A stretch of DNA of 64,000 nucleotides, taken from positions 34,198-98,197 of the forward strand of contig NMRA01000897.1 in NCBI GenBank assembly GCA_002633005.1, given 5' to 3'. Within the stretch, counting starts at the first letter, position 1. Every line of letters starts with the position of its first letter. Shown in pieces: positions 6,092 to 31,200 of this stretch. The notes under the pieces were generated by a model that was not told the DNA's origin, ran no database searches, and worked only from the letters and a program-made list of their open reading frames with translations. The translations under genes and the position numbers were made by a program. This stretch comes from Phoronis australis (taxonomy: Eukaryota > Animalia > Phoronida).

Positions 6092-6406
6092 GAAGACTCA
6101 AAGCTCTGTACCAGATGTCCAATCACGTGCCAGCTGTTGAGGATTATTAATCTCTGCTGAGTCAATTCCTTCCCAAAATCCCATGGTGCTATCAAGAGGT
6201 ACGGACTTACGTGAATGAGTAATTCGCCGATTAGTCTTTCAATGGATCGCACATTTCCCTCTGGAAAGATTTCATGTGGATTTTACAAGTCATCTTAAGC
6301 ATACTTCTTTGCTTCTAAATGTTTCACTGCCTTTTGTTGTGGGTTATCTCCACCTGTCCTTCACTGAAGCCATCTGCATTTCAGCCCATTGCGGCTGTGT
6401 CAGTTT

Positions 6407-6762
6407 GAGATCATTATTGAGATCATTATTATTGAGATCATTCTTATTGAGATCATTATTATTGAGGTCATTGTTATTGAGATCATTGTTATTGAGATCA
6501 TTACTATTGAGATCATTTTTATTGAGATCATTATTATTGAGATCATTGTTATTGAGATCATTGTTATTGAGATCATTGTTATTGAGATCATTCTTATTGA
6601 GATCATTATTATGGAGATCATTATTATTGCGATCATTATTATTGCGATCATTATTATTGAGATCACTGTTATTGAGATCACTATTATTGAGATCACTATT
6701 GTTGAGATCATTATTATTGAGATCATTATTATTGAGATCATTATCATTGAGATCATTATTAT
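6407..6762. repeat. 15-bp minisatellite (GAGATCATTATTATT), probably in the 3' UTR
   Basis: More than 20 tandem copies; they produce the low-complexity ORFs of the ORF track. Confidence 0.95.
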
Positions 6763-8041
6763 TTGCCAAGTCTGAAACAGAGATGTAATAGTGATTTAGT
6801 ATTATGTGAGATTTCAATGAATTGTTGACCATCAAGTACTCATTGAAATGTGATGATCCTTCTGTTTTCATCCATTAAAATGTGCTTGCATACACATGAT
6901 ATGCACTTGCATACACATAGTATGCATCTCAAAAGGTGTTGGTTTGCAATCATTGCCTGGATACTATAAATAAGAATTATAACATATCCATTTTTCAGCT
7001 GCCCTGACAAAAGTTCATCACCCAAATGCTTGTCGTTGTGCAAAGAATTTGCAATGAATGTTGTAATGTTGGTCGTCAGTCAGCATGTAATGTTGGTTGT
7101 TGGTCAGCATGTAATGTTGGTTGTCGGTCAGCATGTAATATACTGAACATATCTGGTGTCCCCATGAATTAGTCCCCAGGAAGTACCCCTTCTGGTTTTC
7201 ATAAGTGTCTTTGTCAGAGAGGACATTTGTTTAGGGGATTAATCCTCTAACTCTGTTTATTTTGGATGCTTGTTCCTAATAACGTTTTGCATTGCATTGG
7301 TTCTGTCATGATGGTTTACAGTGTACCAATTCAGTTACTTTCCTAGGGCACAAAGGACCCCATTAGGATCACATTGTCAGCTTTGTCAATTTTGAAGCAG
7401 CTAAAAGTGTATTGTCCTCTTTACCAGCAGAATTAAGTTGAGTCGAGTTCTGATGGCACCCTGTTATAAATGAACTGCATAGTTTTGAAAGCTGACTATC
7501 ATTTTTATGAGTTATCGCGTTAATATTAGAGCAAACTTGGTGCTACATAGTACCCTGTTGGCATCTTGTGGTGATGGAACCTTACCTCGGACCATACGTC
7601 TGTTTCTTGAAAAGTGACTAAAAACTTAAGTCAGAAATTTGGTCTTCACAATAATTACTAATTAAAGATTTACCCTTGTAATAATCAGGACATCACAGCC
7701 TGGAAATGAATGCACAAAGTATCTCTGAACAGGTCTGGGTGTTGTAATGTATTGGTTTTTGTTATAAACAATAGGTGGCGCAGGAGTGAGAATAATTGCC
7801 ACCAGAAAACGTGACTTTGCATCATCTGCATTATAGGTATATGGCCAAAAACTTTATACTTTTGTTAAAGTGAGATTTTAAAGGCGTGTGGAGCGTAGTA
7901 CCAAATTTCTAACTTAAGTTTTACGTCACTTTTCATGAAACAAGCCCCATAAGCCTTACCTCTGAGCAGAACCTTTACCACTCATCAAAAAACCTGCCAT
8001 AAGCTGCAAGTACCCTTACCACACACAGTTTTGTTGCAATT

Positions 8042-10539: not shown

Positions 10540-11691
10540 AGACTATTGCTACACATGTAACACGCGTACAAAAGTAAGTTGAAAACTATCAACAAGAACC
10601 ACAAGCAACAAGTCAAACCTCACCGAGACGGGACACAATATGGCAGAGGTGAAATTTTACTTTCTTATTTATCCATAAAAGATGTACCAACACATTAGTA
10701 CTTCTCCATGCTCAAGTTCTGCACTACACCGAGCACCAGGCAATATTGTCAAGAATTGTGGCAATTTTGACAATTCTTTTTGTCCGAAATTGGTGAGATT
10801 TTATCGTACTGATTGGTACACGAGCCAATACATTTACAGTACATGGCAAAAACAATTTCACAAAATGATCGGAATTCCTCAGCAGTAACGTCTGAACGCA
10901 AGTGGAATTTCCGTCATGACGATCGAGTGCGAGCTGAATTCACTGTCAAATTAGCTGGAAAATGATAATGGGTAGGCACTTGTCCCACTTGAGTTTTCTC
11001 TTATTAATTTCGACCTGTATTGTATCAGCGTAAAGACCACTACAGTCAGCACAACACAATGATACATTCAACACAAAAACTAAGTTCATGGAACTTGCGT
11101 TTACATAATTCTCCGAAAGAACAAAAACTGAAAAAACTTGAGATAAATTCACTGGAGAAAACGTTACACTTACACCCACCCACATTCTGTAATTCAGCCG
11201 TGCATATTGGAAGCAAACAATTTCCGTAAACATACAGTTGTTATTGCTTCTAAGTGGTCAAAGTGCCTTGACTTCTAACTCCATTTGAATGATTAGAAGC
11301 GGATAGGACTGTTTAGGGCAAACTTGTACAACTTGCAATACACAGTGAAACTACATATTCATACAGTAGGCCCTACAGATGATCACCACTATTTCTGTTC
11401 AATGGGTGACGCCCAGAGGTCAAGGGAACAGCCAAGGTACGTGTGCGATATACTTTGCTAGGAGGCTGCTGGCCGTCCTGACATTTGGGTATCACCTCCT
11501 TGTTGCTCGTTCGATGAAATGTCCACAAACTGTACCTCTATTCCATCAAACAAGAAGGTATGTTTCATTCATAAATCTATCTGACGTAAAATGCATTAAA
11601 ATCTTGGCAAAATTCTTTGAAAAGTCTCAGATAACGGAGAATTAGCATGAACTAAAAGCAGCCATTTTCAACGTGACGCAGAGAAGTGTCA

Positions 11692-11850
11692 GAAACCACA
11701 TGTCTCCAGAGGCTACTGGCTCTGAGGCCCAATGTTTTACTCAAAACCACATGTCTCCAGAGGCTACTGGCTCTGAGGCCCAATGTTTTACTCAAAACCA
11801 CATGTCTCCAGAGGCTACTGGCTCTGAGGCCCAATGTTTTACTCAAAACC
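11692..11850. repeat. 51-bp tandem repeat, three near-identical copies
   Basis: AAAACCACATGTCTCCAGAGGCTACTGGCTCTGAGGCCCAATGTTTTACTC x3. Confidence 0.95.
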
Positions 11851-12077
11851 GAACTTAAATAATTTTTGACATTTTCCATGTTTCTACTTTTATGCGAACC
11901 TGATAAGGGTCTATTTTTCTATGCTCAAGTACATAATGGTTTTGTATAACTGTTCAATACTAGTTTACACATGATGATCCCAGTACTAAAGCTATAACAT
12001 AGATTCTAAACTCGAAATCTCGGGTTTTTAGTTGAAATCTTGAGTTTTCACTCATATCAGTAGCACGAATCTAGAAG

Positions 12078-12275
12078 GAGGCAGTGTGGCCTAGTGTGAT
12101 AGGTGCTGTTTTCTTTACTCGAGGTCGTGGGTTCTTGTGGTCACACTGTTAAACTCTTGAGTCAGGTTTCTAGCTCCTGAGTTCGGTTTTAACTGTGGTT
12201 CCAGGTGATCAGTGCAATGGGCTCACATGCGCGGCCTGCGCATGTCTGGTACAACGTGTATAAGACCGCCTGCAA
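12078..12275 (+). mobile_element. tRNA-derived SINE-like copy
   Basis: GGAGGCAGTGTGGCCTAGTG (A-box-like) and GGTCGTGGGTTC (B-box-like); related to 12745-12850 and 34636-34760. Confidence 0.5.
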
Positions 12276-12744
12276 TTTTTAAAATTTCTACTTTTTAGCA
12301 CAAATCTAGGGGTCATCAAATACAAACTTGGACTAGGCCTTTGTCTATATAAACCATCCCATACACAACTACACAAAGTAGACATTTATCTTGCGTTCGT
12401 ACCAAAGTAGAACAACAAATGTCATAAATTCGACTGCGAGTACAAAGATTAGACCTCGAACCCCAGAATGACAGTAAGTGCTTCTGGCAATCTTCAGCAT
12501 TTTAACCAATAAACTTGTGTTCATAAACCTGTTTTAGAGTCACGTGCTATATATTCACGCACTACACTGCTCTGCGTATAAACTGCATGCTCACACATGC
12601 TCACCAAAAAAAAAGATTTATTAACAACAAATTAACATTTAATAAATACATTGAAAGCCCGTCTTATCAATTAAAATTTACATGGCCAAAATCTGTTTTC
12701 TAATTTTTTAAATAAATATGCATAGAGGTGGTTGTTCGGGAGAG

Positions 12745-12850
12745 GAGGCCGTGTGGCCTTGTGGGTTGAGTGTCCGCCTCCTTTCTCAAATCCCACTGGA
12801 CCCAACTGCTAGACTCTTGAGTCACGTCTCTAGTTCCTCAACTCGCTCTC
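12745..12850 (+). mobile_element. tRNA-derived SINE-like copy (degenerate)
   Basis: GGAGGCCGTGTGGCCTTGTGGG head; body shares ACTCTTGAGTCA..TCTAG with the 12078 copy. Confidence 0.45.
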
Positions 12851-13554
12851 AATTTGTGTATATGTCTAAATCTGTTACATGTCTTGTGTACATTTAGTAA
12901 AACAAAAATGGTTTCAAGTGTTTGGTGCAATTGGTCCAGCTGAGTGGCCAACACAATGTGTATCAGACCACCTGCACTTTTTATTATTGAGGTTACAGGG
13001 AAACTTTAACAAATATGCATTGTGTTTTAGTAACTAAAACAACACATTATATTCAGAAACACAAGTACAAACCAGACCACTTCTTATTTTTAACCCTTTG
13101 AGAAAATGGGTTTCAGTAATACAGTCGTGACATTTACAGCTGTCTTCAAAACATTTTTTGTGGGTAAAACTTTGGAGAGCTGACTGACTCCATGGGAGGT
13201 CTGGACAATACAGCAGCAGAGCCATGGAGTGTGCATGAATCTGAGGCCTGTGAGAGTCTGCTGGTCAGCTGGTCACTATAGTTGCAGTCCTGCTCATCGA
13301 TGTACTCTAGAATGTCCATTGATTCTAAGTCCTAGAAAAAAGAAAACCGCACTAATGCCAATTCTTCACTTATTTAGCGTACAAAATGGCCGATAAGTGA
13401 AATTCTATTTTTTTAAAGTTCTCCACAAAAATAAACATTAAGAAACCATAAGTCTGTTGCTAGCATGGTTTGTACTCTGTTGATTTAATAGAACAACTTT
13501 TTGTAATTTTTTCATTTTATGCATTATTAAAGTAATCAGCCTTTTGCTAAACAG

Positions 13555-13593
13555 AACAAGAGCAACGCAGAGCGTTGAAATGCGCCCACAATT
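13555..13593 (-). mobile_element. Terminal fragment of a Helentron-type HINE, interrupted by nested insertions
   Basis: AACAAGAGCAACGCAGAGCGTTGAAATGCGCCCACAATT is identical to the end at 28984. HINE sequence resumes at 25558 (TGTAGTATGTTGTACTTTGC, cf. 29090). Confidence 0.75.
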
Positions 13594-14349
13594 GACCTAT
13601 CGCAAGCTCCGCCCCTATGCGAAAAGTCACGTGACACCCGACATTCGAACGAGATGTCAGAGGCAAATACACTGTCGCTAAACGACGTTCCTGGTGAAAT
13701 CGATGAGTGTTTTTGCACTATTTGAAAACGCGTCGACAGGGACAAGAGGCGATGCTTTTCAACAGTGAATCGTACGTTCATGATATGGGAATTTGTAAAG
13801 GTGACGATGAAAAAATAAGTGCTCGAGGAGCCAGACAAAATCCGAAGAACCCCTCGGCCTCGGGGCTACCTTCACCTGCAGGGCTCGACATAACGAGCTG
13901 CAGGTCGCATTTGCGACCTGAAATTTGGAAATGCGAGCTGAGATTTTTGTCAGCTCGTATAAAGTCACAAAATGCGACCTGGAATTTCCAACGAATGCGA
14001 GCTGAGTTTTTACACTTCTCAACAGATACCTGGCAAATACAAAGCAGCTCTTGTTAATCCGACCGTTATTTGGTTGTTGCCAAATACAAGTTCAAAAGAA
14101 CACTAACAGGCCTCCCGATGACTTGTAAGCAAGTCGCGTGATCATGGGATATGCAGAATCAATCTTTGACGCGTTTCATTGGCTAACACTTTCGGCCACT
14201 TTTGTAAATTCCCGGATTCGTCGAGGAAAGTTTCGGGCCACTGCTTACACGTGATAAAACTTCACATAACAACGGTGTTTCTATTAATTCTTAAGTGATC
14301 AACTTACCAAACTTTGTGGTGGACAAAAATGCTTATTTTTCGCATAAGA
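13594..14349 (+). mobile_element. DNA transposon fragment (GACCTATC terminus, AATT target), possibly ISL2EU-like; runs into the gap
   Basis: Terminus shared with MITE 8042-8219. Broken ORF 13654-13850 (..FNSESYVHDMG..) resembles the N-terminus of SWIM/YqaJ accessory proteins of invertebrate transposons; family assignment is from memory. Confidence 0.4.
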
Positions 14350-16261
14350 NNNNNNNNNNNNNNNNNNNNNNNNNNNNNNNNNNNNNNNNNNNNNNNNNNN
14401 NNNNNNNNNNNNNNNNNNNNNNNNNNNNNNNNNNNNNNNNNNNNNNNNNNNNNNNNNNNNNNNNNNNNNNNNNNNNNNNNNNNNNNNNNNNNNNNNNNNN
14501 NNNNNNNNNNNNNNNNNNNNNNNNNNNNNNNNNNNNNNNNNNNNNNNNNNNNNNNNNNNNNNNNNNNNNNNNNNNNNNNNNNNNNNNNNNNNNNNNNNNN
14601 NNNNNNNNNNNNNNNNNNNNNNNNNNNNNNNNNNNNNNNNNNNNNNNNNNNNNNNNNNNNNNNNNNNNNNNNNNNNNNNNNNNNNNNNNNNNNNNNNNNN
14701 NNNNNNNNNNNNNNNNNNNNNNNNNNNNNNNNNNNNNNNNNNNNNNNNNNNNNNNNNNNNNNNNNNNNNNNNNNNNNNNNNNNNNNNNNNNNNNNNNNNN
14801 NNNNNNNNNNNNNNNNNNNNNNNNNNNNNNNNNNNNNNNNNNNNNNNNNNNNNNNNNNNNNNNNNNNNNNNNNNNNNNNNNNNNNNNNNNNNNNNNNNNN
14901 NNNNNNNNNNNNNNNNNNNNNNNNNNNNNNNNNNNNNNNNNNNNNNNNNNNNNNNNNNNNNNNNNNNNNNNNNNNNNNNNNNNNNNNNNNNNNNNNNNNN
15001 NNNNNNGGGGGGGGGGCGCTTATTATAACCCAGGGCGGTTGAAACCCGGTCTCCGAAACAGGTGAAATCGGAAGCTAAGATTCATCAAATTTACGCTGTG
15101 TGACGTATATGTAATCTATGAAAGACTTTCAACAAAACTGTGGTGCATTGCTACCAAACTTTACTACTAAATTACGATCATGTTACAGAAAATTGTGCTG
15201 AAATCCCAGGGCGAAAACTCGCCGACTGACTGCCTCGAAATCGCCGTCTTCGATATGGTTACTTCAATGCTTGAATAAAAATTTTTTCGGCTCAAGCAAA
15301 TTACCTAAAATCCTTATTAAGTTTTATAAGTAGCGTCTCCAAGATTTTTTAAGTTCCCGTGGAGTCTGGATTAACGGCAGGTTTAAGTACAAATCTGTGC
15401 AACATCGTGCCATCTACATGTATGATCGGCAACACGGCGAGAAAAATGTCTAGACGAACACACATGTTGTTGTCACGTGACGTTTGCTTTGAAGTTCGTC
15501 TGCGAGTAAGCGAGCGCGTGCGTGTCACCTGAGTTCATTTGCCAAAGCAAAGCCACGCAATCTAAGTAGCTAGATGTGTCTAAAGAAATTTGCACAAGCA
15601 GTAGGCTTAAACCAGAGTGTGTTTCATTCAGCACTTGCCAGTTGCGTGCTAAAAACTTTCAACATTTGTCTCGGTAAGGCCCATATTAGTCGCCGTGTAG
15701 CTGGAAGCGTACGTAACTATCTGACAGTCATTTTTCGGTGTAAGGGTGTGTAAGCATTCACTGTCAGTTGTCATTTTATCGGATATTCGGCTTAAAAACA
15801 CCAATTATGGTTAATCAAACAATCTATCTCAAAAATAACGCAAACATGTTTCACCCCGGCCAACCCGCGATCGAGAACGAAATTTGGCGCGAGAAGCGAA
15901 GCCAGAAAATGTAAGTAAATTTGATGAATTTTTGGTTGTTTTGAGTTTCAATACGAAAACAGAGACATGAGTTCAAGGCGTAACACATTGAGGAAGGACA
16001 GGTAGAAGTTTAGACTTGTGTCTCGTCCAAATATTGGAGAAAAGTTACTTTAACCGATGAATCGCTTGAGCCGAAGTAGGCAATGACCATCGCCTCTGTT
16101 GGCCCGAACCAGAGGCGATGCAGAGGCTATAGGCGCTCTGTACGCCGGTTCTACATCAATATATTAATCATGAGGAAATGACGTATGAAAATGTAACCCA
16201 ACGCTTGTTTTCCGTAGCATTGTCAGGATCTTTGATTTATGAACCTTTTTCTGTTAAAAGA

Positions 16262-16330
16262 AGCGATCGAGAACGCATTGATAAGCGATCGGGAACGCAC
16301 ATTTGAGTTCGCTAAAGCGATCGGGAAGGC
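16262..16330 (+). repeat. Left subterminal repeats GCGATCGRGAACGC (x3), copies of the TIR inner motif
   Basis: Same motif as TIR positions 15867-15880. Confidence 0.8.
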
Positions 16331-16475
16331 ACTGCGGTGTGTTGAACAATAGTGAACTTTTCAGTAATAAAGAGTTTTAAAAGTTACAAAACAAGTGTGG
16401 TTCAATGAATTAATGATATTTTGCATCATTACTGTGTTGCTTTTTTGTTTAAAACTAAATTTCATAGCATAGCAT

Positions 16476-16776
16476 CCCATACCAAAAAGGCCTCCTGCAA
16501 ACACTTGCGGCAAGCTTGCTGCAAAAGTTTCTGCAAATCAGCCACAAACACATGGAATGATCTCTAGCCAGAAAGTTGTAGTAAGTTTCCTGCAACCCAG
16601 CCGCAAACATTGCAGCAAACTTGCTGCATGTTTGCCGCTAGCATGCAGCAAACTTTCACCATGCAAATGAAGTTTGCAGCAAGCTTGCAGCAAACATCTC
16701 CATGTCCTTATTTGGAACAGTTCCTGCAAGGCAGCTGCACACATTGCTGCAAGCTTGCTGCAAACATCTTCATGGG
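16476..16776. mobile_element. CCC...GGG MITE (EnSpm-like non-autonomous) in intron 1 of the transposase-like gene
   Basis: CCCAT...ATGGG ends; internal dispersed GCAAGCTTGCTGCA repeats. Confidence 0.5.
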
Positions 16777-19700
16777 GTTATATAGAAGTTTCTGCGAACC
16801 ACCTGAAAAAATATTGCTGAAAGACTACAAAATACTTGAATTATGGTATGAATAATTTAATAAAAAATGTCCTTGGCTAATACATTATTTTTATTGTATG
16901 CCCACTTGTTAAAACAAGAAAATACAGAATCAGCTGCATACTCGATTTAACATGATAGTTTTCAATCTTTTAATGTATGTCGACTAGAAATGAAATCAAC
17001 ATCACATGACAAGGAATAACAGAAACTACAAAAGTGTCTACAGTGGCAGTTAGTAATAATACTTGTATTACAATCAAAATTGTGTCTAAAGAGAACAACT
17101 AGAATGTATGCAAGCCTTAATTACAATATGCCAATATGTTTTATGCTTAACGCACGACAAAAATCTATGGTAATTGTAACTAATCAAAACTAACAACAGC
17201 AACACAGAGTGTTGAAATGTGCCCACGGCTGTGCCGCCTACGGGGTGTTAATCAGCATTGAAAATGGCAAAAAAATGTCGAATGCCAATAAAAAAACCCC
17301 ATGAAATCAGATTTCCTCTCAGTGAAAATAAGGCATACTTAGCACAACATGTCGAGCATATTAAAGTATTTTATTTTAAATTACCTCATTACTGGTCAAC
17401 TAAAAAGAATCACTCTTAGCAAGTTGTATGTTGAAATTTGCAATATTTCGACTAGGGATATCATCCAACAGCAACATTCATTTAGCTAAGGCATCAAACA
17501 TAAATTAAACCTTTCCATTCTACAATATTTCTTAGGTGTTGAAAAGAACAATTACAGAGGTTGTCCAGTTATAGTCATACTAGTAGACGTTCTAAACACA
17601 TTCTACTCCAGACTAATCTGTATTGCAGCAATCAGTGGTGTTGCATAGGGATCGTGGGATGATCGCTCCACTTTTCTTCCTTAGCATATATTTCCATAAA
17701 ATCACCATGAGCACTACATGTACAGCAAGCGTTATATTTTAGTTATGGATATTTTCACAAATTATTTTATTTTTATTTCAGGAAACAATTTCATTGTTAT
17801 TATTGCCCGGCAAGCTTCAACGACCATGAAAAAATCATTGCCCACGCTGTGGCGGTGCCTTTTAGATGAAACTACTGGGAAAATGGGACTCTAAACTAAG
17901 ACGCATCCAGGAGTTATTCCACGAGACGTATCAGCTGGGGGAAAACAAATTGTTGCGACTGATGAAAGTGAGTGCCGAATATTTTTACAAAACTGCGACA
18001 ACAAAAGAAAAAAAAACCGAACACGCCAGTGAAGTCAAGCAATGATAGTGAGTTTGCCAAAGAAAATCTGAAAACAGATGAGACTCCCAGTAATGAAGAA
18101 TTAGAGTTTGACAAGATGTGCTTCTTGCTTCCCCAAGTCATAGAGATAATGAAAGAAAATGGTCTCATGGAATCTTACGTGAAACTGATTGCACTTCTTG
18201 CCTCAGGTAGACTGCCTTTGAACAACATATGTTTCCTACTATTCCTGGATAGTCGAGTGGTTTTCGGTGGAAAATACTTCCAAAATGCGTTACCAAAACC
18301 CACAAACTCTTCGGTTCTGGGAAATTGGCTACCAGCTATTTCATTGAAAGTTCATCAGATTTATGTCTGGACAACGAAATACAGGTCAGATTTTAGACCA
18401 GTCAACAGCAAGGGGAGAGTATAGCTCAGGTCAATTCAAAGTGAACTTTGCAGTGCCATCTCTGACTACAATACAACATAACCTTTCTAAAAGGAGTCCG
18501 TTTTTTCCAGGAATAAAAAGGCAGACAATTGAAAATATAGCCCACACTTATGAAAGCTCTCCTGTAATTTTAGCTGTGGATGGAAAAAAAAATAAGTCGC
18601 GGAAAGGGCAAACGCATGGAGGATATTGACCTGTGGGGTTTTGAACCAAAGCCAACTCTTCAGGAAAGATTGAACCAAGTTGAAAGAGAAGTGGAATTCG
18701 TGAATGAGCTAACAAAAGAAACGGATAGACTAATGACCTATAGTGTTCAGACCATTAGTGCAATACCCTCAACGTCACGTGAAAAAATTCATTCCGGACT
18801 CGTTGAATTGATTAAGTTCATAGGATATCGTAATAAAACAATGAGAGGCACTGAACAGACGCTAATTCGCTCTGAAGAGAAGTTCAAGCGACTCGGCGGA
18901 GATGACTGGATGAAATCCAAGTATTTCCCGGTCATCTCTTTAATGAGGACAAAACGCAGTGAAATTCGTGCCCACCTAAAAGGTCTTCAGCTGTCAGACG
19001 AGATCACAAAATTGGGAATTGACCTAAATGGGAAATCAAACCTTCATTCCGAGAAGTTAGTTAAGCTTGCAGAACAACAGAACTTTTATTCACTGAACCC
19101 AAACTTCAATAAGTCGACTGATCCACGTTATATGCAACAAAGAACCCCGGAGTGGTTTTCTTTGCGCAGCGAAGCGAAAGTTACTGGAAGTACAGCCAAT
19201 TGTGCACTCGGCTTAGAGACCTTAAAAAGACAAAAAGAACATTTTCACCAAGTAATTCATGGCATAGAAAAACCTCGTCACAGTGCACTTAACACTCAGA
19301 GAATGCTTTATTTAACTGAACACGAACTGGATGCAGTTGCAACAATGACATCTAAAGTATTGCCGTTTCTGTTTCCAGAACTGAGCTATTATGAAGAAGG
19401 TTGCCAAACAATACCTCACGGCGACAAAGCAGCATTCATGGTAGTGAGTTCGGATGGCAGTCTCAGGACAAATGATAATGCAGAACCAATAATGATGTAT
19501 GAAAACAAGTGCAAAGCACCCCAGTCCTATAATCCTAACGCATACTACAAGATTCCTAAATATTACGCTGTACAGTTACTCTCTGAGATGTTTGCTTACA
19601 GATGTGACAAATTACTCTTTACGTGCTGGTCAGAGACGTCACTTACTGCTTTCATGGTTAATTTCGACCATCATCTATGGGGAATGTGCTCGGAGGAAAT

Positions 19701-22700
19701 GACAGAAGTGTATGGCAGTCCAAATCCAAAGCTACTTACTAAGTTCAGACCTAGTCGAAAGCTCATCCAAGAACAAATCGCTGCATTTATGGAGAATATC
19801 ATCCACTTTCTCGGTGAGTTTATGTCGTGTGTTGCTGTGAGATCACCATCGTCAGACGTCCAAAGTGATGACGCTTATATATCGCCACAGAGTTCAAATG
19901 ACGCCAAGCCAATTTCTACAGCTCGAGAGTTACAGAACTGCCTTGTGTCGACGAAAAACTGGATTAATCGGGCTCATCAGTTGTCTAGGACAACTGCATC
20001 CGAGATTCTGGTCTACATGGTGAACGGTTTAGACCGGACTTACCATGCCGAAATAAATGTTGCTTATCCTATAGCGTATGCAATGAAGGGAACAAGCATG
20101 AATAATGCCACCTTTAGAAGTATGATGAATCAAGTTATCTCTGAATGTGAAGCAAGGGGGTCTAAACGTGCCGGCCACGTCTAGTGATGGACAATGGCAT
20201 AAGTAAGGAGTTCGCGGTGATGACAACGAACCACTGACTGTCTTGCAATTACAGAAAGATCACTGGTCAAGTGTGATGTCACAAGATAAGAAGACGATTA
20301 TGTCCCAAATAAAATCTAAAGCAAGTGTAAAGAGTTTTCCTGAAGATGTCCAAAAAGAGTACAATGTCAATGGTTCCGTGACTGTCTGGCACAAGAAAGA
20401 TTCATCGATGACTGGGTATCTAAACACAGACCACTCAAAATCCCAGAGAAATGCAATCATTGATGCTACTTGCCAGAACAGATATGATGGGACTGAATCT
20501 CAGCTGTTATCTGTAAAAGAAACATGTCTCGCACTTTTTGAGGATGAACACTTTGAAAACACTTCTCTCGAAACTCTAAATGCTGTTGAAAATATAATTG
20601 AAAGCTCAGTAACAAATAACGTGCAGAATTTGCATGAGTTCCTTGGACAGGACTATTTTGTCGAACCATGGTTGTTCCAAGAAGAACCAGGTGCTACACA
20701 CAAAGTTTTGGCGCAACATCTGACGTGCTCTTTGGGGCTTTTGAGGCCATGTACATTAATGGCCATGACGACTTCTATGTGCAAACTGTGATCGATATGA
20801 GTGTTGATAAAATACCTTTGAGAAGAGATGGTGACCGTATGGAATTGGACGAAGAAAATCTCAACTACACAGTATATGCCAATGATGACAACACATGTGT
20901 GGACACAGAACATGTACTTGAAAGTAAGGAGAATGGAAATGCGGAGCTGTTAGTTTCCGAGAATCGTTACGCTGTGGACACTGCAACGTCTGAATCCATG
21001 CTGAATGCTTTAAAAGCAAATGAAATGGCTGAAAACTATCATAAATGGTCACAAAAAACTGTTGAAGACTTCAAAAGACTTTTTGCATGTAAGACCACTT
21101 GCAATAAGGCACTCCACAAGTTTGAACTCCAGATATGTCTACAAGTGTTACGTGTGCAGCACGGTGTTTGTTTTGACATTAAACCCTCAAAGAAGGAGCT
21201 AGTTCAGTTGTTCACGTCTACATTGAACTTTGGGGTAAATCCCCCTAATAGGAAGTATCATCAGCGCAATCGAAGTGTTTGCTCACTTAGAAAAATGTGT
21301 TGTTCTGTTTTAGAACGTGCATCAAAACAAGAGCTTGCTAAGATTCTCGCAGAAAACACATGGGATAAAGCTTTACAACAGTGGATTGAATCTGGACCAT
21401 TGTACCACACTTCGTGTTTTCTTGATAATGAAAAGAGTATGAAGAATTGGTTTTCTCGTCCAAGTACTGACCATTACGGCAAGAACAGGTTCCACTTCAC
21501 CGACGCCTGTCACATTTTGACTTGTATTAGGACAAAACTCTGTACTACTGGAATTGCTGGTTTAAAGCGAAAAGCATGGGAAGATGTTGCTCTATCTCGC
21601 AAAACCCATCTCAATATTGCTGTGATTGAGGATTGCGTTGACAAGCAAGATGTAGCTTTAGCAAGACGTGTATTTTCCAGGGATGTTCAAGAAAATATGC
21701 TTGACGAATATGTCAACGAGAAAGAATTTTGTGAGTTAATACGAAACTGGTTTGATGCCGAGGACGAGCCTGCCATACCTGCTGCTGAAAGATGCATCCG
21801 AAGGCTTCGACTTAGAAAATGGCTTTTAGAAGAATTTGCAGTGAACACGTTTCCGCCACAAACCCGATATATCAGAGGCATACCGATACAGACTTTCGAG
21901 GCATTGTTGGTGCACTTGGAAAGGAAAATGCAAATTTTCCCTTGCTGCAGAAATCAAACATATAATGTTCGTATAATAGGTTCTCAGCAGGTGGAAAACT
22001 TCTTTTCAACATTTCGAGATATGGACTCCACTGGACAAGGGACACCAAAACCAGACTCCATTCCTCATATGATGACAGCAGTTGCAGATTTAGACTACTG
22101 CAGAATTGACCCCAGCAGGAAAGCAAGATTTAGAATCAAGCTTGTTTCCTACACATGATTAACTGTAAATTACGCGGACATATCAACTCTCATGTTTGAT
22201 ATTTTACAAAAGTGTTATTTTTCAGTTAAAATTTTGAAGATGTGGCAACAAAACGCTCCCTGAATAAAAAATGAAAAAATGTTTCACATACCTATCCTCT
22301 GAGCTGTGACGGGAAAAAAGTTTTGAGGGCGATGTAAGTGTAAATTTATTTTCACACAAGGGCTCGTATGTATAATCAAAATAGGAACTAGTTGAACTGT
22401 AAGAAATTATATTAATTTAACAACTAGCTTGTCAGGTTTTGTAAGAGGTGACACTAAGAATTTGAATTGTTTCAAATGCATTCACGTTTACATGTTTAAT
22501 CTTCTATAAAACCCCCTACTTGGTTTCAGATCATTCTATATGTCAACCACACGAGCCGGAGTGTATCCAATGAGACAGTTTGAGTCCGGTGAAACCCAAG
22601 AATGTTTTCACGGCCAAACGCAAGGCATTCATTCTGCATTAGTTTTTAGTCTGATAACTCCAAGGTTAGTGTTATGTGATACACGTTAACTGTAATTGTT

Positions 22701-23861
22701 ATCTTATATACATTACTTTTTTCTGTAGTCAAATTTCTCTTTTTTCGTCTTCATCTATTCGTTATCATAATGTCGCGTATTAGTGCTGATAAAGGTACGT
22801 AAAGCACCATTGTTTTAAAAAATATTCAAATCGTGGCATTGTCAAATAAGCAAGGTCTTCATGAGCGCCGGGTCAAAAATACCCTTCAATAAATAAACGT
22901 CCAAGCGCTTATGCGTCATATTACGGTATTTCCACTACTTTGAAAACAGTGGCAAGTGTAATGCAGCTCACAGGCTAGCGTCGAAAGCTTTAAAGGAGGA
23001 TTGATTACTCATTAAATTTTGAGACCTCATAAGGTCGTAACCCTTCGGAAAGGAGGGAAAGTGTCGTTGCCAAGCGAGTCCGCCCATAGTGAGAAAGGAG
23101 TGTGACAACACCATTCGCGAGATGACTCGAAGATACCTGCTCATAAACGACTCGGATTTCAAAATTTATCAGAAGTTGTGTAGCCAAAAGTATTGTGGTG
23201 ATAAAAGTGTTGGGATTTTGTTTAATGGTTTACTAATAACATCCATACAGAGTTGAACAGACTGACTTGCTACATCCTTGAGGCTTGTATGTGTTTTGTG
23301 TTCTTGGTCCCGAGTTCACTGTGCTATAATTTCAGTTCATGGGACATTGAAAAAGAGTGAGAGGAGTTGTAATACACATACTATATTGTGATTTTCTCAA
23401 AACGTAGTGACAATGTTGTCTTTAAGTCATTTCAAGACACACTATAGTAACTACACTGGAAATCAACAATATGAAAGCAAAATTCCGTAATAATAGTAAT
23501 CTTTTAATCACACATCATCTCAAAATACGTCATAAAAATATATAAAATATAGCTCTGGGTAATCAACATTACAAAAGAATCATTGAACATTCCCCATGAG
23601 GTATTTTTGGAATGCATTGCACTTATTATAGACACATATTTTCTTTTTAAAATCTTATGGTAATAACAATGGCCAATGGCACTTAGTATGGTCATTTGAA
23701 TATACCTAAACACTACAAAAATGCACTGGTTCTGTTTAAGATAGATAAAATAACACAAATGTAGAAACTTTAGAAAAAGGTTCAAAATACCACATCTGGC
23801 AACTACCAACCATAAACTCTTTTAATCAGAATAAAAACTTAAACAAATTTCACTACTGGAC

Positions 23862-24993
23862 TTAATGAAGCTTCTGTTTTTTGTGCCTACAGAGGGAGGC
23901 ATAATGCTTGTACGATTTGCCGCATCCACAACAGAAAGCAGTGACCTCATGTTGTGACGCCATGTGTCGCTTTAGGCTCACTTTCTCTGTGAAACATTGG
24001 TTGCAGGCATGACACTGAATTGTCTTGTCTCCTGAGCACAGTGCTTCATGTTGTGACTTTTTGTACCTATTGAAAAACTTCTTGCCACATGAAACACATG
24101 AAAATGCTTTGTAGTTTGCGTGCTGGCTCATGTGATCTTGAAACTTTGTTTGTCTCACGAACACTTTCCCACAGTCCGTCACTGGGCAGGTGAACGTCTT
24201 GGTTGCAGTCCTGTCACAATGCTTTGATGCCATGTGGTCAAGCAGTGTTGATTTTTTACTAAACGAAGCTCAATAGTTCTTTGTCACAAGCACTAGTTCT
24301 CCTTTTTGAAGGTGTAGACGTTAAGAAGCTAAAAGACTTATCTTGTGGCAGAAGTTCAACTAAAAAATATCAAAAGCATTTCAGTTATACTTGTTAGGTT
24401 AAATCTCACAAAAATCATGAAAAACAGTGAAGTATAATAAACAATCAACCCACCCGGCGCCTATTTCAGGGTACGTATTAAATGTAAAACTGACACAACA
24501 CCGTAACTTGAACGAGTATTCAGGCCAATGCATAGAAAAAGAATGTGCGTTCACGATCGCTTTTTGCGTTCACGATCGCTTTTTTGCGTTCACGATCGCC
24601 ATATGAAAGTAACGATTTCGTTCTCGATCGCCGTCTCACACAAGGACAAGCTTGTATTGGTAAATATCTCGCATTGTTTCACAAAACATAACTTCGAAAG
24701 GTGTCACCTGGGGCAATGAAGCTCTAAACGTCACACTTCTTTACTTTAGAACTCTGGAACTGCTAATAACAAGTAAAACTTGTCGACTTTACGACGCGCA
24801 AGGCATTTTATCGGAAGGCATTACTTTCTGGGTCCTTTAGTTGATAAAATAAGCAAAACCAAACATCATTTCAGATCGGCAACAAAGGTTAAGCTCTGAT
24901 GCTTTTCTCTGTGTCGCATTCGTGCCAAAGTAGCCACTGTTTAAGAAGAAAATGACACTAAGACTCACCAGGTACATCATCGTCGTCTGCCAT
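23862..24993 (-). pseudogene. C2H2 zinc-finger gene (about 5 fingers) carried by the 9.2 kb element; one apparent frameshift
   Basis: Exon 1 24993-24969 (ATG GCA GAC GAC GAT GAT GTA CCT G|gtgagt); exon 2 24359-23862. Fingers: CPVTDCGKVF..DHMSQH, CVSCGKKF..HEALC, CHACNQCF..HMASQH, CGCGKSY..RHKKQKLH. The first finger (..SFSKKSTLLDHMASKH) is out of frame with the exon start near 24275. Confidence 0.8.
24547..24632 (-). repeat. Right subterminal repeats GCGTTCACGATCGC (x3) plus CGTTCTCGATCGC
   Basis: Reverse complement of the left subterminal/TIR motif. Confidence 0.8.
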
Positions 24994-25899
24994 TTGTGCG
25001 GCAAAGTGTCGTTCTCGACCGCTTTCCGGTCGTTCCCGATCGCAGGTTGGCCGGAGTGTGTTTTATAGTCTTAGAAATTGTCGGAAATTAGCGCCAATAT
25101 TCATTTCTTATCGATGCTATGCTACCCGTTTCATGAATGGATAGTTTCCAACTGTCTTTGATGACAGGTTCATGGATGTAGCGCGCGCTTCCTGGCCACG
25201 TGCGTTTAACATCGAGTTATTTTTATTCATGAGACAGTCGATGTGTACTGAAAGGTCAGACCATAGTGGGACGCGGTCGTCGCGAGAGCGTAGCAACGCC
25301 GTTGGGTTCTTTTTGAAGCGTTGCGTTACTTTGAAGTGTAAAGTCACAAATAAATACAATAGTAGCAGTGCCGCTGGTGGTTTAGAAGACTCGTTTTTTG
25401 ATAAATTGAAGACGTTACTGTAGCCGAGTTTTAGGACTGTAGGTACGTCATTGTTCGCATATGTACACGTTCATGGACTGGGCGCTTATTTCTGCAGTCT
25501 GAAAACGCGTGGGGGGCGCTTATAGGGGCATGGGCGGTTATTACGGCGAATACGGTATGTAGTATGTTGTACTTTGCAAGATGGAAAGGCATCTGAAAAC
25601 AGAGAATTAGCATCACATCATAAACAGATACCTGTATGCCAAATTTTATGAAAATACGTTGAGGACATTTGAACATACAGAGGTAAACGGAAAAAATAAA
25701 ATTACCACTAGGTGGCACACCAGAAGTTAGCTCCGTCGGAACATCATCGTCATGTGTTGCCAACATCATATAAATACACTTACTAAATTTGGTAAAGATC
25801 CTTCGAACGATTTAAAAGATACAACCATAGGCGCAAAAAACTGCCACTAGGAGCATACATGTCAGAATGTCTAGTTGTACCCAACTAATCCCAACTTAT

Positions 25900-27360
25900 C
25901 CTGTCATCACTACTGATGCAAGCCCGTTGCTGACATCATGTTTGTTATCAAACTGCCCCTGCAGGTGGCGCAGCTATTAGTGGGAATAGTTGAATTTGTT
26001 GAAACGCGTGATTGATGTCTCTAACATTGAGCTTGTGGATGACATCATGTAAGTTAGCTCCCTGTCCACAGGTGACGCACTGATTAGTAGGAATCGTTGA
26101 ATTAGTTGAATCCAACTAATCCCAAGTCAGCTCAACCTATCCAGCACTGAGCTATTCAATTAATTCAACTAATTGTAGCGCCAGCTAAAGTATAACTGGC
26201 AATGTGAGACAGAAAAACCCGAGTCACTGACCTGCCTGCAGGTGGCGCAACAATAAGTGGGAATAGTTGAATTAGTTGAAATGCATGTTCTGTGTCAAGT
26301 TGAGAGCCTTTTGCTGACGTCATGATTGTTATCAGTCTGTTCCTGTAGGTGGCGCAGCGATAAGTGGGAATACTTGAATTAAGTTGAAATGCCTGATCTG
26401 AGTCTGTCAAGTTGTGAGCTTGGTGAGCCTTTTGCTAGCGCCATGCGCTTTATCTGTCTGCCTGCAGGTGGCATAGCGATTAGTGGGAATAGTTGAATTA
26501 GTTGGAATGTGGGTTCTGAGTTTCTCAAGCTGTGAGCCTGTTTCTGACATAATGTTTGTTATCAGCCTATCCCTGCAGGTGGCGCAGCGATTAGTGGGAA
26601 TAGTTGAATTAGTTGAAATGTGGGTTCTGCGTTCCTCAAGCTATGAGCCTGTAGCTGACATAATGTTTGTTATCAGCCTATCCCTGCAGGTGGCGCAGCG
26701 ATTAGTGGGAATAGTTGAATAAGTTGAAATGCTTGTTCTGTGTCTCTCACTTTGTGAGCCTGGTGAGCCTTTTGCTGGCGTCATGTACTTTTTCAATCTG
26801 CCTGTAGGTGGCGAAGCGATTAGTGGGAATAGTTGAATTAGTTGAAATGTGTGTTCTGTGTCTCTCAAGTTGTGGGCCTGTTGCTGACGCCATGTTTGGT
26901 ATCAGGTCTGCCTGCAGGTAACGTAGCGATTAGTGGGAACAGTTGAATTAGTTGAAATGCGTGCTTGGAGTTGCTAAAATTGTGAGCCTGTTGATGATGT
27001 CATGTAAGGCGTTCTCTACCTGCCCACAGGTGGCGCAGCGATTAGTGGGAATAGTTGAAATGCGTGTTCTATGTCTGTCAAGTTGTGAGCCTTATGATTA
27101 TGTGATAAACTTTATCTACCTGCTCTACTTGATCTACCTAACTTTATCTACTCGTTATTTAGTGGGTCAACCCCGTAGGTGGCGTTACATGTCTGCCTTC
27201 AGGTGGCGTAGTGATTAATGGGAATAGTTGAATTAGTTGAAATTCGTGTTTGGAGTCTCTAAAATTGTGATTCTGATGGTGACGTTATGTAAGTTATCTA
27301 CCTGCCCACAGGTAGCGCAGCCATTAGTAGAAGTATTTGAATTAGTTAAAATGCGTTTTC
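25900..27360. repeat. Satellite-like array, ~110-bp unit (CCTGCAGGTGGCGCAGCGATTAGTGGGAATAGTTGAATTAGTTGAAATG...)
   Basis: About a dozen diverged tandem units; a further unit near 28100-28200. Confidence 0.9.
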
Positions 27361-28269
27361 TACTTGATCTACCTGTTTCGTTGAGAGTTTGTATTATTTT
27401 AAGTTTGCCAGTTCTGCCCTCTGTTGTTTATTTTATGTTTCAGCTTGGCTACGCCACATTTATTGTTTTAGTATAACCTATGTCTTAGCCAGGACGAAAT
27501 TTACAGCTACCCTGAGCTTTTCTCACTTGATTCTTGTAGAGGATGGATGTGTTTCAGTTACCTGCCAGTTTTTTAGTTGAAATATATGTCACAGCGTTCA
27601 AGAAAGTAAGTTTTTTTTGTTGGCTTATTAGTTGTATTGCAGTGTAGGTAATATTGTAATTTCTGACTTTTCTTATATTTAAAATAGGGGTAATTCTTTG
27701 GAAGTGAAGGTTCTCGTTTCAGAAACACGTGTTTTCAGAGGTGTAGTTTAGATTTCTTTCGACAGTTGGCGCTCTTAGCAGTACGTTTATTTCCGTTCAC
27801 CGTGTGGCGCTGTGATTTGTTTATTTACATCCGGTTTTTGATTAGCGGGTTTGTGGCTTTGATATATGAGTTTGAATTGTACTTAGGGTTTTCATGACAG
27901 GTTTTGGATATTACTTACTTACTTACGTTGGTTTATTTGCTGTGACATGCAGAGATTATTATTTCTTGTATTTATGGTGATTTTTGGTTTGTTTTCAGAT
28001 TGAACTTCTTCTTCTAGACTTATACTGATGTCTGATGTAAAAATAAAGTTCCAATTTAAACGCTGCTGCTGTTTATTCACCCTGTGCGTGAGCCACTACC
28101 TAACCGTGTTTCTCAAGTCGTGAGTCGGTTGCTGACGTCATATAAATTATGTACCAGCCCCCAGATGGCGCGGTTATTAGTACGTATAGTTGAATTAGTT
28201 GAAATCGGTTTAGTAGACCTACAGCTTCATATTAATCGATTAGTAGGTCCCTACCAAAGATTCTGACAT

Positions 28270-28983
28270 GACTCACTAGGAGACGCCACAGAAGTCAAAA
28301 TCGGCGAAAATCATCATCAGCCGTCCACTTCATAGTAAGAACATACGTGCCAACTTTCGCAATCATCTCTTGATAAACGAGTGGACACCAAAACAGAATT
28401 GAAAACAGTAAAAATTGCCACTAGGTGGTGCAAACTACGTCAAATTCATCTGAAAACGGAGAGATAGCGTCATCTCATTAACAGATGCCTTTAAGCTAAA
28501 TTTTATGAAAATACGTTGAGGACCTTTGAATATAAAGAGGTAAACGTAAAAAAAAAATTGCCACTAGGTGACACACCAGTTGTCAGATCTGTCTGAAAGT
28601 CGTCGTCCTCTGTTGTTAACATTATATAAAGGCCCTTACTAAATTTAGTAAAGATCATGCACACGGTTTAGAAGATACCGCCACAGGCGCAAAAAAATGC
28701 CACAGTAGTCGAAGTCGTCGGAAAATCATCGTCAGCAGTCGAATTTATAGTAAGAACATACATGCCAATTTTCACAATCGTCCATTGAGCGGTTTGGTTG
28801 ATAGAGGGGTGGGCAAAAAAAAAGAGTCGAAAACAGTAAAAATGGCCACCAGGTGGCGCAAACTACGTCGAATCCATCCGAAAACGGGAGTATGGCTTCA
28901 TCTTACTAATAGGTGCCTATATACCAAAGTTTCGGAAAATCCCTTCAAGACTTAGGGACGTCAAAAACAGATTCGAAAACAGT
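28270..28983 (-). repeat. HINE internal ~145-bp core repeats
   Basis: Units with GCCACTAGGTGG, similar to 25560-25860 and 32150-33050. Confidence 0.75.
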
Positions 28984-30800
28984 AACAAGAGCAACGCAGA
29001 GCGTTGAAATGCGCCCACAATTGCACCGCATACGGTATCCTTCTAGGGTTGTTTATTGGTACCATAAAGTGGCCAGTAGAGGGCATATATGTAGTATGTT
29101 GTACTTTGCAAAATGGAAAGGCATGGTCATTGTCTCCTCAATAGGCTAGGGGCAAAATGTGAGTAATCTTCATAATACAAGCACATCCTATACACCAGTT
29201 GCTTAAAGCACCACAGAAANNNNNNNNNNNNNNNNNNNNNNNNNNNNNNNNNNNNNNNNNNNNNNNNNNNNNNNNNNNNNNNNNNNNNNNNNNNNNNNNN
29301 NNNNNNNNNNNNNNNNNNNNNNNNNNNNNNNNNNNNNNNNNNNNNNNNNNNNNNNNNNNNNNNNNNNNNNNNNNNNNNNNNNNNNNNNNNNNNNNNNNNN
29401 NNNNNNNNNNNNNNNNNNNNNNNNNNNNNNNNNNNNNNNNNNNNNNNNNNNNNNNNNNNNNNNNNNNNNNNNNNNNNNNNNNNNNNNNNNNNNNNNNNNN
29501 NNNNNNNNNNNNNNNNNNNNNNNNNNNNNNNNNNNNNNNNNNNNNNNNNNNNNNNNNNNNNNNNNNNNNNNNNNNNNNNNNNNNNNNNNNNNNNNNNNNN
29601 NNNNNNNNNNNNNNNNNNNNNNNNNNNNNNNNNNNNNNNNNNNNNNNNNNNNNNNNNNNNNNNNNNNNNNNNNNNNNNNNNNNNNNNNNNNNNNNNNNNN
29701 NNNNNNNNNNNNNNNNNNNNNNNNNNNNNNNNNNNNNNNNNNNNNNNNNNNNNNNNNNNNNNNNNNNNNNNNNNNNNNNNNNNNNNNNNNNNNNNNNNNN
29801 NNNNNNNNNNNNNNNNNNNNNNNNNNNNNNNNNNNNNNNNNNNNNNNNNNNNNNNNNNNNNNNNNNNNNNNNNNNNNNNNNNNNNNNNNNNNNNNNNNNN
29901 NNNNNNNNNNNNNNNNNNNNNNNNNNNNNNNNNNNNNNNNNNNNNNNNNNNNNNNNNNNNNNNNNNNNNNNNNNNNNNNNNNNNNNNNNNNNNNNNNNNN
30001 NNNNNNNNNNNNNNNNNNNNNNNNNNNNNNNNNNNNNNNNNNNNNNNNNNNNNNNNNNNNNNNNNNNNNNNNNNNNNNNNNNNNNNNNNNNNNNNNNNNN
30101 NNNNNNNNNNNNNNNNNNNNNNNNNNNNNNNNNNNNNNNNNNNNNNNNNNNNNNNNNNNNNNNNNNNNNNNNNNNNNNNNNNNCAGGACTTTTGAAGATA
30201 CAAAGGTAAGCGTAAAAAACTAAAATTGCCACTAGGGGGCACACCGGTAGTCGGATCCGTCCGAAAGTTCGCACATGCCGTCCCATTCATGAATGGAACA
30301 TATGTGCCAAATTTCATGAACGTATGTCAAAGGGTTTTGGAGATAGAGCAGCGGACGCCGGACGCCAGACGCCGGACGCCGGACGGACGCCGCCCGTACG
30401 GACGGACGGACGGAGATGACGGCATAATGCGTCCACATATAAATATGTGGGCGCATAAAAATGGCCACTAGGTGGTGCAAACTAGGTAGAATCCATCTGA
30501 AAACGGACAGCGTCATCTCATTAACAGATGCCTGTATGCTAAATTTTATGAAAATACGTTGAGGACCTTTGAATATACAGAGGTAAACGTAAAAAACTAA
30601 AATTGCCACTAGGGGGCACACCGGTAGTCGGATCCGTCCGAAAGTTCGCTCATGCCGTCCCATCCACGGAAGAAACACATGTGCAAAATTTCATGACCAT
30701 ACATGTAGGTCAAGGCGTTTTGGAGATAGAGCAGCGGACGCCGGACGGACGAAGATGACGGTATAATACGTCCACATGTAAATATGTGGGCGCATAAAAA
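28984..30800 (-). mobile_element. Helentron-associated non-autonomous element (HINE/DINE-1-like) spanning the gap, with a duplicated 5' end
   Basis: On the - strand: T-tract, subTIR ATGCGCCCAC with inverted partner, (CCGT)n microsatellite (~30400-30412), core repeats, 3' subTIR plus hairpin CAACGC..GCGTTG and TTGTT end. Confidence 0.75.
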
Positions 30801-31200
30801 TGACCAAATATGGCAATTATTTTTGTGCAAAATAAGTGGAGAGTTATCATACACAACCTCAAACACTAGCTACGCATTTGCACAGGTGCATCACAGAGAG
30901 TTTACTAGCTACACTCTTCGCGCAAATGCTGTCACTAGAATGAGCAATAGAAAATTGACACCAATTTCATGCATTGCAAGAATTCGAGCACACAGTTACT
31001 ACCTTAAGTGGAGTACAAGAAATAGTCATGTTTCGATATGGCCACGAAATTATGAGTTATACCTCGTTGCCGCATGGCAATGGAGAAGTCGGTGGACAGC
31101 AGTCTGCAGTACTGTCTCATATGGGGATTTGGGGATTTAATGTAGAGGGGTTTCCCAGTGTTGTTTAAAGATTCTTTGTGACCATCATGCTACCAAATTG

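Follow-up and report, generated by a model that had tools for sequence, protein, structure and literature searches.

A predicted P-type transposase fold with a nested lambda-type exonuclease in a decayed DNA transposon of Phoronis australis

Background

Accessory exonucleases are already known from DDE transposons, and we describe here a further case, a DNA transposon in a 64,000-nucleotide stretch of the Phoronis australis assembly (contig NMRA01000897.1, positions 34,198 to 98,197; hereafter the window, whose numbering is used throughout), the transposase of which almost certainly combines a P-type fold with a nested lambda-type (YqaJ) exonuclease. In Dada, found in Laccaria and Ectocarpus, an exonuclease is nested in the DDE transposase and is proposed to process the cleaved ends (PMC3706591). 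KolobokE is a DDE transposon with a lambda-exonuclease-like PD-D/ExK nuclease downstream of its transposase (PMC9587614), and ISL2EU is an animal DNA transposon that encodes YqaJ as a separate open reading frame, or ORF (PMC4482050). The transposase of the P element, with the catalytic triad D230, D303 and E531 (10.64898/2026.09.03.748810), needs GTP, which it contacts through K385, K400, V401, S409, F443, D444, N447 and D528; its cleavage leaves 3' extensions of 17 nt, through an unknown mechanism, and it duplicates 8 bp of its target (PMC7776569). Insertions into the RNase H fold usually lie between strand 5 and helix 4, the strand 1-2 position being occupied by a short insert only, in Mos1; a search of the same source for YqaJ or exonuclease gave no match (10.64898/2026.09.03.748810). 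None of the papers listed in our literature searches describes a YqaJ domain nested in a P-type transposase; Repbase, Repbase Reports, subscription journals and supplements lay outside the scope of these searches, and the family may be catalogued there.

Architecture of the transposase

A preliminary description of the window, made from its letters, had proposed that a YqaJ domain is inserted inside the RNase H fold of a P-type transposase. All 12 of the motifs that it named are present in the order and at the places given (Table 1), distributed over three reading frames. Matches made with the window alone are weak, so that the case rests on homologs: the ORF at 18574-20184 matches Pfam YqaJ at E 0.026 (score 15.2, below the cut-off of 22), and the best PDB sequence match of the C-terminal piece is P transposase at E 0.065. 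A search for longer proteins gave five matches, four of which are single ORFs of 1253-1608 aa with 98% query coverage and 40-43% identity. In tblastn these four long homologs tile the window in order over 17789-22119, the main blocks having E values of 1e-90 to 1e-180, which excludes chance. All four exceed the Pfam cut-off for YqaJ, and all four match PF21787, the N-terminal part of the P/THAP9 RNase H domain, only from its position 66 and below the cut-off, the match starting directly after the YqaJ insert. Against the PDB, a sequence profile of five close homologs found no match, and a 70-sequence profile found lambda-family exonucleases and not P transposase.

The fold was examined in an AlphaFold2 model of the homolog P0102, based on 70 sequences (predicted local distance difference test 86.3, predicted template modelling score 0.82). 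Foldseek places P transposase at rank 1 for this model (E 2.4e-6) and lambda-family exonucleases next. VIA-align superposes model residues 97-1131 on residues 136-569 of the P transposase chain (6p5a) with Z 27.8 and a root-mean-square deviation of 3.1 over 376/442 residues, as compared to Z 11.2 (deviation 5.2) for Transib, 10.6 for RAG1 and 8.4 for Hermes, and it places lambda exonuclease on model residues 397-609 with Z 15.3. The proposed nesting is thus upheld in the model, in which an RNase H-like fold is predicted and both reference structures are matched, the exonuclease inside the transposase. Since residues 250-569 of the 6p5a chain make up at most 320 residues, at least 56 of the aligned pairs must involve earlier residues of that chain; provided that the alignment is sequential, the parts on either side of the insert therefore share one superposition. 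In the model D220 lies on strand 215-223 and is followed by long helices, the exonuclease, a returning helix and strands 698-706 and 718-726, with the helices of the insertion at 246-366 and 671-692; D759 comes after strand 753-758, helices 928-1076 lie in the insertion domain and E1090 is in a helix. We infer that D220 corresponds to D230 of P transposase. The exonuclease is predicted to sit on a helical stalk between RNase H strands 1 and 2, and the RNase H core to close around this insert of ~450 aa.

Both sets of catalytic residues are strongly conserved. The first aspartate (D1) is D in 71/71 homologs covering the column (53/54 in the count made at D220 of the model), the second (D2) in 67/70, the D and the H of DxxH in 60/60 each, and the catalytic E in 57/58. 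Within the YqaJ domain the W is kept in 64/64, the R in 63/64, the two S in 65/65 and 70/70, and the D, E and K in 70/70 each, and all of these residues align with residues of lambda exonuclease. In that enzyme the W, R, S and S residues bind the 5' phosphate. The SSDG motif, which had been read as a possible sign of decay in place of SPDG, does not bear that reading: the position is usually P (87 of 109 homologs), but G (12), A (6), S (3) or T (1) stands there in 22/109 with the catalytic D kept.

Homolog family

A representative search returned 973 proteins at E <= 0.001, of which the best 150 were examined. From 171 proteins collected, 109 of at least 500 aa were aligned after near-duplicates had been dropped, and 41 of these reach from D1 to E as a single ORF, with 448-525 aa between D1 and strand 2. 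D1, D2, DxxH and E together with the E, D, E and K of YqaJ are kept in 36 of the 41 at a median pairwise identity of 28%, so that alignment and model agree in predicting two nuclease active sites in one polypeptide, as had been proposed. When the DDE part after the insert was used alone as a query, it gave 41 matches, 37 of them new proteins; the YqaJ region is matched upstream in 36 of these (in some only partly, at 20-50 bits), the remaining one starts too late, and each of the nine that extend as far as D1 carries the stalk and YqaJ between it and the query part. No close relative without the insert appeared in this search, which reaches only proteins sharing short words.

The family is spread over molluscs, an annelid and amphioxus, the named hosts being Dreissena, Littorina, Pinctada, Mytilus, Batillaria, Owenia and Branchiostoma, under records labelled 'YqaJ domain protein' or 'hypothetical'. 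Two records are named as bacterial metagenome-assembled genomes, on contigs of 3-5 kb, and are probably host contamination. Relatives of the locus were confirmed in none of 210 and none of 489 candidate stretches from metagenome contigs, in none of 98 from prokaryote genomes and in none of 41 from viral contigs; a single weak, unnamed cluster in the ESM Atlas (0.81, YqaJ 64%) is a lead only. Near-identical sets of four 1608-aa and four 1253-aa proteins lie on different contigs and differ by 1-19 residues, as expected for recently mobile elements, although alleles or repeat assemblies could also explain them.

The transposon and the state of the window copy

At this locus lies an animal DNA transposon of 9.2 kb, in decayed form, which encodes this predicted P-type transposase with its YqaJ insert. 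In Table 1, we have listed its features; it extends well past both limits of the 18560..22020 noted at first. The element is bounded by terminal inverted repeats (TIRs), which rank as the longest inverted pair within 11000-30000 and begin CACCCCG and CACTCCG, and by a target-site duplication (TSD) whose length is set by a test of lengths 2-11, only 5 bp giving a flanking direct repeat (the chance of two random 5-mers of the window agreeing is 0.0012). No further copy of the TIR was found in the 64-kb window. Matches to the TIR pattern in two GC-rich actinomycete contigs are due to chance, since these have only the 22-25-nt match in common. An empty-site joint 15846>25059, which skips 9212 letters with five letters fitting either side, occurs in three contigs (two in X1, one in X2) and in 51 RNA reads of X6. 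The element is inserted into a high-copy miniature inverted-repeat transposable element (MITE), a continuous paralog of which lies at 49924-50932; the depth of the MITE in X1 is 100-200 times that of the element interior, and 94 X1 contigs have unrelated flanks beyond 25557. Other MITE variants join near 15846/25059 with small differences. The MITE family, which we take to be Tc1/mariner-pogo-like, occurs at 15010-15851, 25059-25557, 49924-50932 and 42240-42374, has TACCGTA/TACGGTA ends and is plentiful in RNA reads.

Table 1. Features of the transposon, its transposase and its insertion site (window positions)
Feature	Position	Strand	Evidence or remark
Whole DNA transposon, 9207 bp	15852..25058	.	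TIRs, TSD, empty-site joints
Left TSD, TGTTT, 5 bp	15847..15851	+	only length 5 repeats at the flanks
Right TSD, TGTTT	25059..25063	+	flanking repeat and joint reads
Left TIR, starts CAC	15852..15880	+	26/29 complementary to right TIR
Right TIR, ends GTG	25030..25058	-	26/29 complementary to left TIR
Left subterminal CGATCG-core repeats	16257..16330	+	motif search
Right subterminal CGATCG-core repeats	24542..24631	-	motif search
MITE left half, split by the element	15010..15851	.	continuous paralog 49924-50932
MITE right half, ends TACGGTA	25059..25557	.	continuous paralog 49924-50932
Transposase exon 1, 3' part	15882..15910	+	X2 contig in which 17782 directly follows these 29 letters
Transposase exon 2	17782..22118	+	tblastn, reads, Pfam; 6 frameshifting indels and 3 stops
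Transposase exon 3	22530..22664	+	411-letter skip in 14 X7 RNA reads and one X2 contig
Last transposase exon, remnant with one stop	23046..23159	+	tblastn of homolog tails
Second gene, C2H2 zinc-finger array, convergent	23862..24269	-	Pfam zf-C2H2 E 6.4e-13
First RNase H strand, bearing catalytic D1 (codon 18579-18581)	18567..18590	+	conservation, model
Helical stalk, YqaJ domain and returning helix, inserted between strands 1 and 2	18650..19995	+	~450 aa, approximate ends
YqaJ core of PD-(D/E)xK type, with W/R/S pocket and D 19453, E 19501, K 19507	19138..19600	+	Pfam, fold, alignment
RNase H strands 2-4, including catalytic D2 (codon 20186-20188)	20002..20197	+	PF21787 positions 66-132, below cut-off
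Second variable insertion, D2 to DxxH	20210..21400	+	acidic, poorly conserved, then helical
Segment from DxxH (21502, 21511) through the helical insertion domain to catalytic E (21994-21996)	21496..22017	+	conservation
Motif ILAVDGKK	18567		
Motif QRTPEWFSLR	19138		
Motif VTGST	19180		
Motif SSDG	19447		
Motif ENKC	19501		
Motif YYAVQ	19561		
Motif EILVYM	20002		
Motif YPIAYAM	20065		
Motif TSSDGQW	20177		
Motif FTDACHILTCIR	21496		
Motif DKQDVALARRVFS	21640		
Motif GSQQVENFFSTFR	21979		

The sequence CGATCG[ATG]GAACG occurs eight times in the 64 kb, always within the element, at most 510 bp from its ends and oriented inward, and these subterminal repeats are likely candidates for transposase binding sites. 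The summed X1 depth at 16102-16465, which is not a copy number, is ~70 times that of the element interior and suggests many short derivatives of the element's left end. A repeat at 16476-16830 that starts with CCC, contains many internal inverted GCAGCAAGCTTGCTGC-type units and has raised X1 depth is probably a separate small element; its start at 16476 was considered as an end of the transposon and ruled out, the position lying inside intron 1.

Exon 1 of the transposase gene stops 59 bp inside the left end with the letters AT, the start codon being interrupted there by intron 1 (15911-17781, GT..AG). Splicing of this intron is seen in one X2 contig with loose ends; X2 may, for this reason, be RNA although it had been guessed to be DNA. 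Exon 2 opens with a C2H2-like CxxC...H motif, intron 2 (22119-22529) reads GA..AG in the window copy, and the remnant of the last exon is matched by 3 of 11 homolog tails (E 2e-4 to 8e-4). The window copy lacks an exon start that nine reads carry. The mate bias of X6 at the zinc-finger gene is opposite to that at the transposase, and we place the first exon of that gene at an ATG at 24993 (minus strand), ~65 bp from the right end. This gene is apparently frameshifted near 24270.

The frameshifting indels of exon 2 lie at 17858, 18008, 18248, 18584, 20156 and 20697 and account exactly for the reading frames found by tblastn; the stops lie at 17892, 18345 and 20204. Frameshifts that had been guessed from the letters at ~18250, 18584-92, 20160 and 20700-50 coincide with four of these indels, all read-supported. 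The X1 and X2 contigs (two samples of one study) and the RNA run X7, from a different study under the same species label, differ by ~2% from the window and lack all six indels as well as the stops at 17892 and 18345; a further run, X5, had depth 2-3 in 9 of 30 bins and was excluded. RNA reads without the indel number four at 17858, 4 of 7 at 18008, 10 of 13 at 18248, 9 of 10 at 18584, 4 of 4 at 20156 and 1 of 2 at 20697. Because reads lack the six indels and are spliced, the window copy is dead, a decayed member of a family that has near-intact, weakly transcribed members. Over 17858-18405 and 20288-20742 the X1 and X2 contigs also show a second subfamily of the element, ~10% divergent and at lower depth.

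Comparison with described systems

With the P element and THAP9 the element shares the predicted fold, a helix-turn-helix ahead of the split RNase H domain, the D/D/DxxH/E residues and a helical insertion domain; with the P element it also shares TIRs of ~30 bp (29 here, 31 in P), internal binding sites (candidates here), a CA start and a multi-exon gene. It differs in the stalk and exonuclease of ~450 aa, which set D1 and D2 ~510-590 aa apart as compared to 73 in P, in a second insertion of 168-562 aa in homologs between D2 and DxxH (~36 in P transposase), and in the extra zinc-finger gene. No THAP domain was matched in the four full-length homologs (E <= 5) or in five pieces of the window, the homolog N-termini being C2H2-like or variable, and the TSD is 5 bp rather than the 8 bp of P. 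In the wider P group the TSD is 7-8 bp. Several of the P-type GTP contacts seem to be replaced in the family, judging from a hand mapping from one weak alignment, which covers the seven from K400 to D528: V401 is kept in 29/59, S409 in 42/60 and F443, as F or Y, in 52/60, but K400 is K in 0/59, D444 is D in 10/60, N447 has become D in 59/60 and D528 is D in 0/58. The P-type label of the preliminary description therefore stands for the fold and the D/D/DxxH/E residues, and does not extend to the TSD, the THAP domain or, as it seems, several GTP contacts; we take the enzyme to work like P transposase, yet would not class it simply as one more member of the P superfamily, because it lacks two of the P features looked for, THAP and, in the one insertion examined, the 8-bp TSD.

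Among the transposons with accessory nucleases, Dada resembles this element in that its DDE transposase harbours an exonuclease complete in its catalytic residues, but that exonuclease is a DEDDy 3'-5' enzyme between D2 and DxxH, whereas here a PD-(D/E)xK domain of 5'-3' type lies between D1 and D2. KolobokE has a downstream nuclease and RR...YY termini in place of a nested domain and CAC...GTG. In ISL2EU the transposase is of the PIF/Harbinger type with THAP, the target site is AT, the termini are GG and YqaJ is a separate ORF, whereas here all is one polypeptide. Lambda exonuclease and LHK-Exo (PF09588) share the fold and aligned W, R, S, E, S-x-D, ExK and Q motifs with the nested domain, which differs in being part of a 1500-aa eukaryotic transposase with no partner annealing protein in the element. 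Transib and RAG1 have in common with the element a 5-bp TSD and CAC termini (PMC1131882), but their fold is far more distant, the heptamer-nonamer was not found here and the target here is A+T-rich.

Proposed mechanism and alternatives

The explanation that we consider probable is that this P-fold transposase uses its nested lambda-type exonuclease to trim 5' DNA ends made in transposition. The DDE site would nick the 3' ends of the element and join them to the target with a 5-nt stagger, and the tethered exonuclease, its 5'-phosphate pocket intact, would then digest 5' to 3' from phosphates left at the break. With somewhat less assurance, we hold an active end-trimming role as such to be more likely than not. 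The donor flanks would be the favoured substrate because the first 5' phosphate arising from a nick at the 3' end lies on the flank, and their resection would steer repair towards restoring the element with the sister chromatid as template; as a choice of substrate this is the leading one and still a doubtful one.

Several observations weigh against the reading that we prefer. The model is that of a distant homolog and not of the window copy; among the 41 spanning homologs, five lack one or more of the residues or are truncated; and the set of 109 proteins is biased toward the insert, its query having held YqaJ. At 18008 the RNA reads are split, four of seven being without two letters and three without three, and at 20697 just one of two agrees, while no read or contig crosses the whole ORF and RNA depth is 2-15 per strand. 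A single insertion is the source of the 5-bp TSD, and the empty sites belong to paralogous copies of the MITE, of which the one in the window differs exactly at the insertion spot. Lambda exonuclease acts as a trimer, which a transposase dimer may not permit.

The same architecture might instead serve the element ends, an alternative that we think unlikely without being negligible: the exonuclease would trim or release the non-transferred strand there, leaving a P-like long 3' extension and replacing the GTP-dependent second-strand step. It draws on the 17-nt extensions and GTP requirement of P transposase (PMC7776569), on the anchoring of the insert adjoining D1 and on the scarcity or absence of K and D at the positions mapped to K400, D444 and D528, but that mapping is the hand-made one given above, a processive exonuclease would need to halt within the TIR, and the stalk of ~120 residues may keep the domain off the active site. 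It is improbable, in our view, that the YqaJ domain does no more than bind DNA ends, or that it works outside transposition, where it might degrade excised copies or competing DNA. The function of the YqaJ ORF of ISL2EU is indeed described as unknown (PMC4482050); here, the invariance of D, E and K favours catalysis over mere binding, and the domain is fixed in the catalytic fold of all 41 + 9 spanning proteins.

That the window element is intact and its breaks are assembly errors would agree with the position of three indels in homopolymer runs and with the lack of the window allele at the listed sites in X1 and X2 contigs. A loss of ~32 bases, the loss of 2 bases at a site that is no homopolymer run, two substitutions that create stops, the GA donor, the missing 3' exon start and ~2% of substitutions are unlike homopolymer errors and make this very improbable. 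We give still less credence to a Transib-type element that merely carries the gene, which the 5-bp TSD and CAC ends, as Transib hallmarks (PMC1131882), might suggest: no second transposase was found inside the element, exon 1 is spliced to exon 2 from within 59 bp of the left end, the CACAATG heptamer and A-rich nonamer were not found at the ends, and the fold lies much closer to P (Z 27.8 against 11.2). It is hardly credible that VDGKK is not D1 and YqaJ an N-terminal fusion instead of an insertion, for although conserved acids follow the insert (E698, D706, D708), PF21787 positions 1-65 are absent there, D220 is conserved on a strand, and the rigid fit to P begins at model residue 97, chain residue 136. 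An endogenous viral element, brought to mind by the frequency of YqaJ in viruses and by the Pfam term viral recombinase, can be dismissed in view of the introns, TIRs, TSD and P-type core, the 0/41 candidate stretches confirmed in viral contigs and the lack of a virus-like ORF among window ORFs of at least 120 aa.

Exonucleases of the lambda type turn up repeatedly in transposon groups unrelated to one another (KolobokE, ISL2EU), where their role is not established. Here, according to the model, the exonuclease is enclosed by the catalytic core of one polypeptide; the element has defined ends and a target duplication, and intact copies seem to be transcribed, so that a single point mutant could test the role of the domain. 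A P-fold enzyme with 5-bp duplications and seemingly fewer GTP contacts would also tell which features of P, among the 8-bp stagger, GTP and the 17-nt ends, are tied to the fold, and the RNase H strand 1-2 loop, if the model is right, tolerates a catalytic insert of 450 residues. We raise only tentatively, and as rather unlikely, the idea of a distinct, unnamed animal lineage standing as its own group beside P, with a P-type fold, Transib-like ends, THAP and the GTP cofactor lost, and a nested exonuclease obligatory for end processing.

Surroundings of the element

As a whole the window has the character of animal DNA, rich in repeats and interrupted by N gaps. Exons resembling an immunoglobulin-domain membrane protein lie at 1337-2002 and 5198-6091, with PPPY motifs in the tail recognised by eye, followed at 6339-6838 by a tandem array of ~30 units of 15 bp. 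Dispersed repeats of 110-170 bp that have CCACTAGGTGG/CTGCAGGTGGCG cores cluster in 25533-33142, together with a 111-bp array at 25920-27350, and a long foldback at 62223-63943, centred at ~63080, consists of nested inverted arms of 40-190 bp with 85-96% complementarity.

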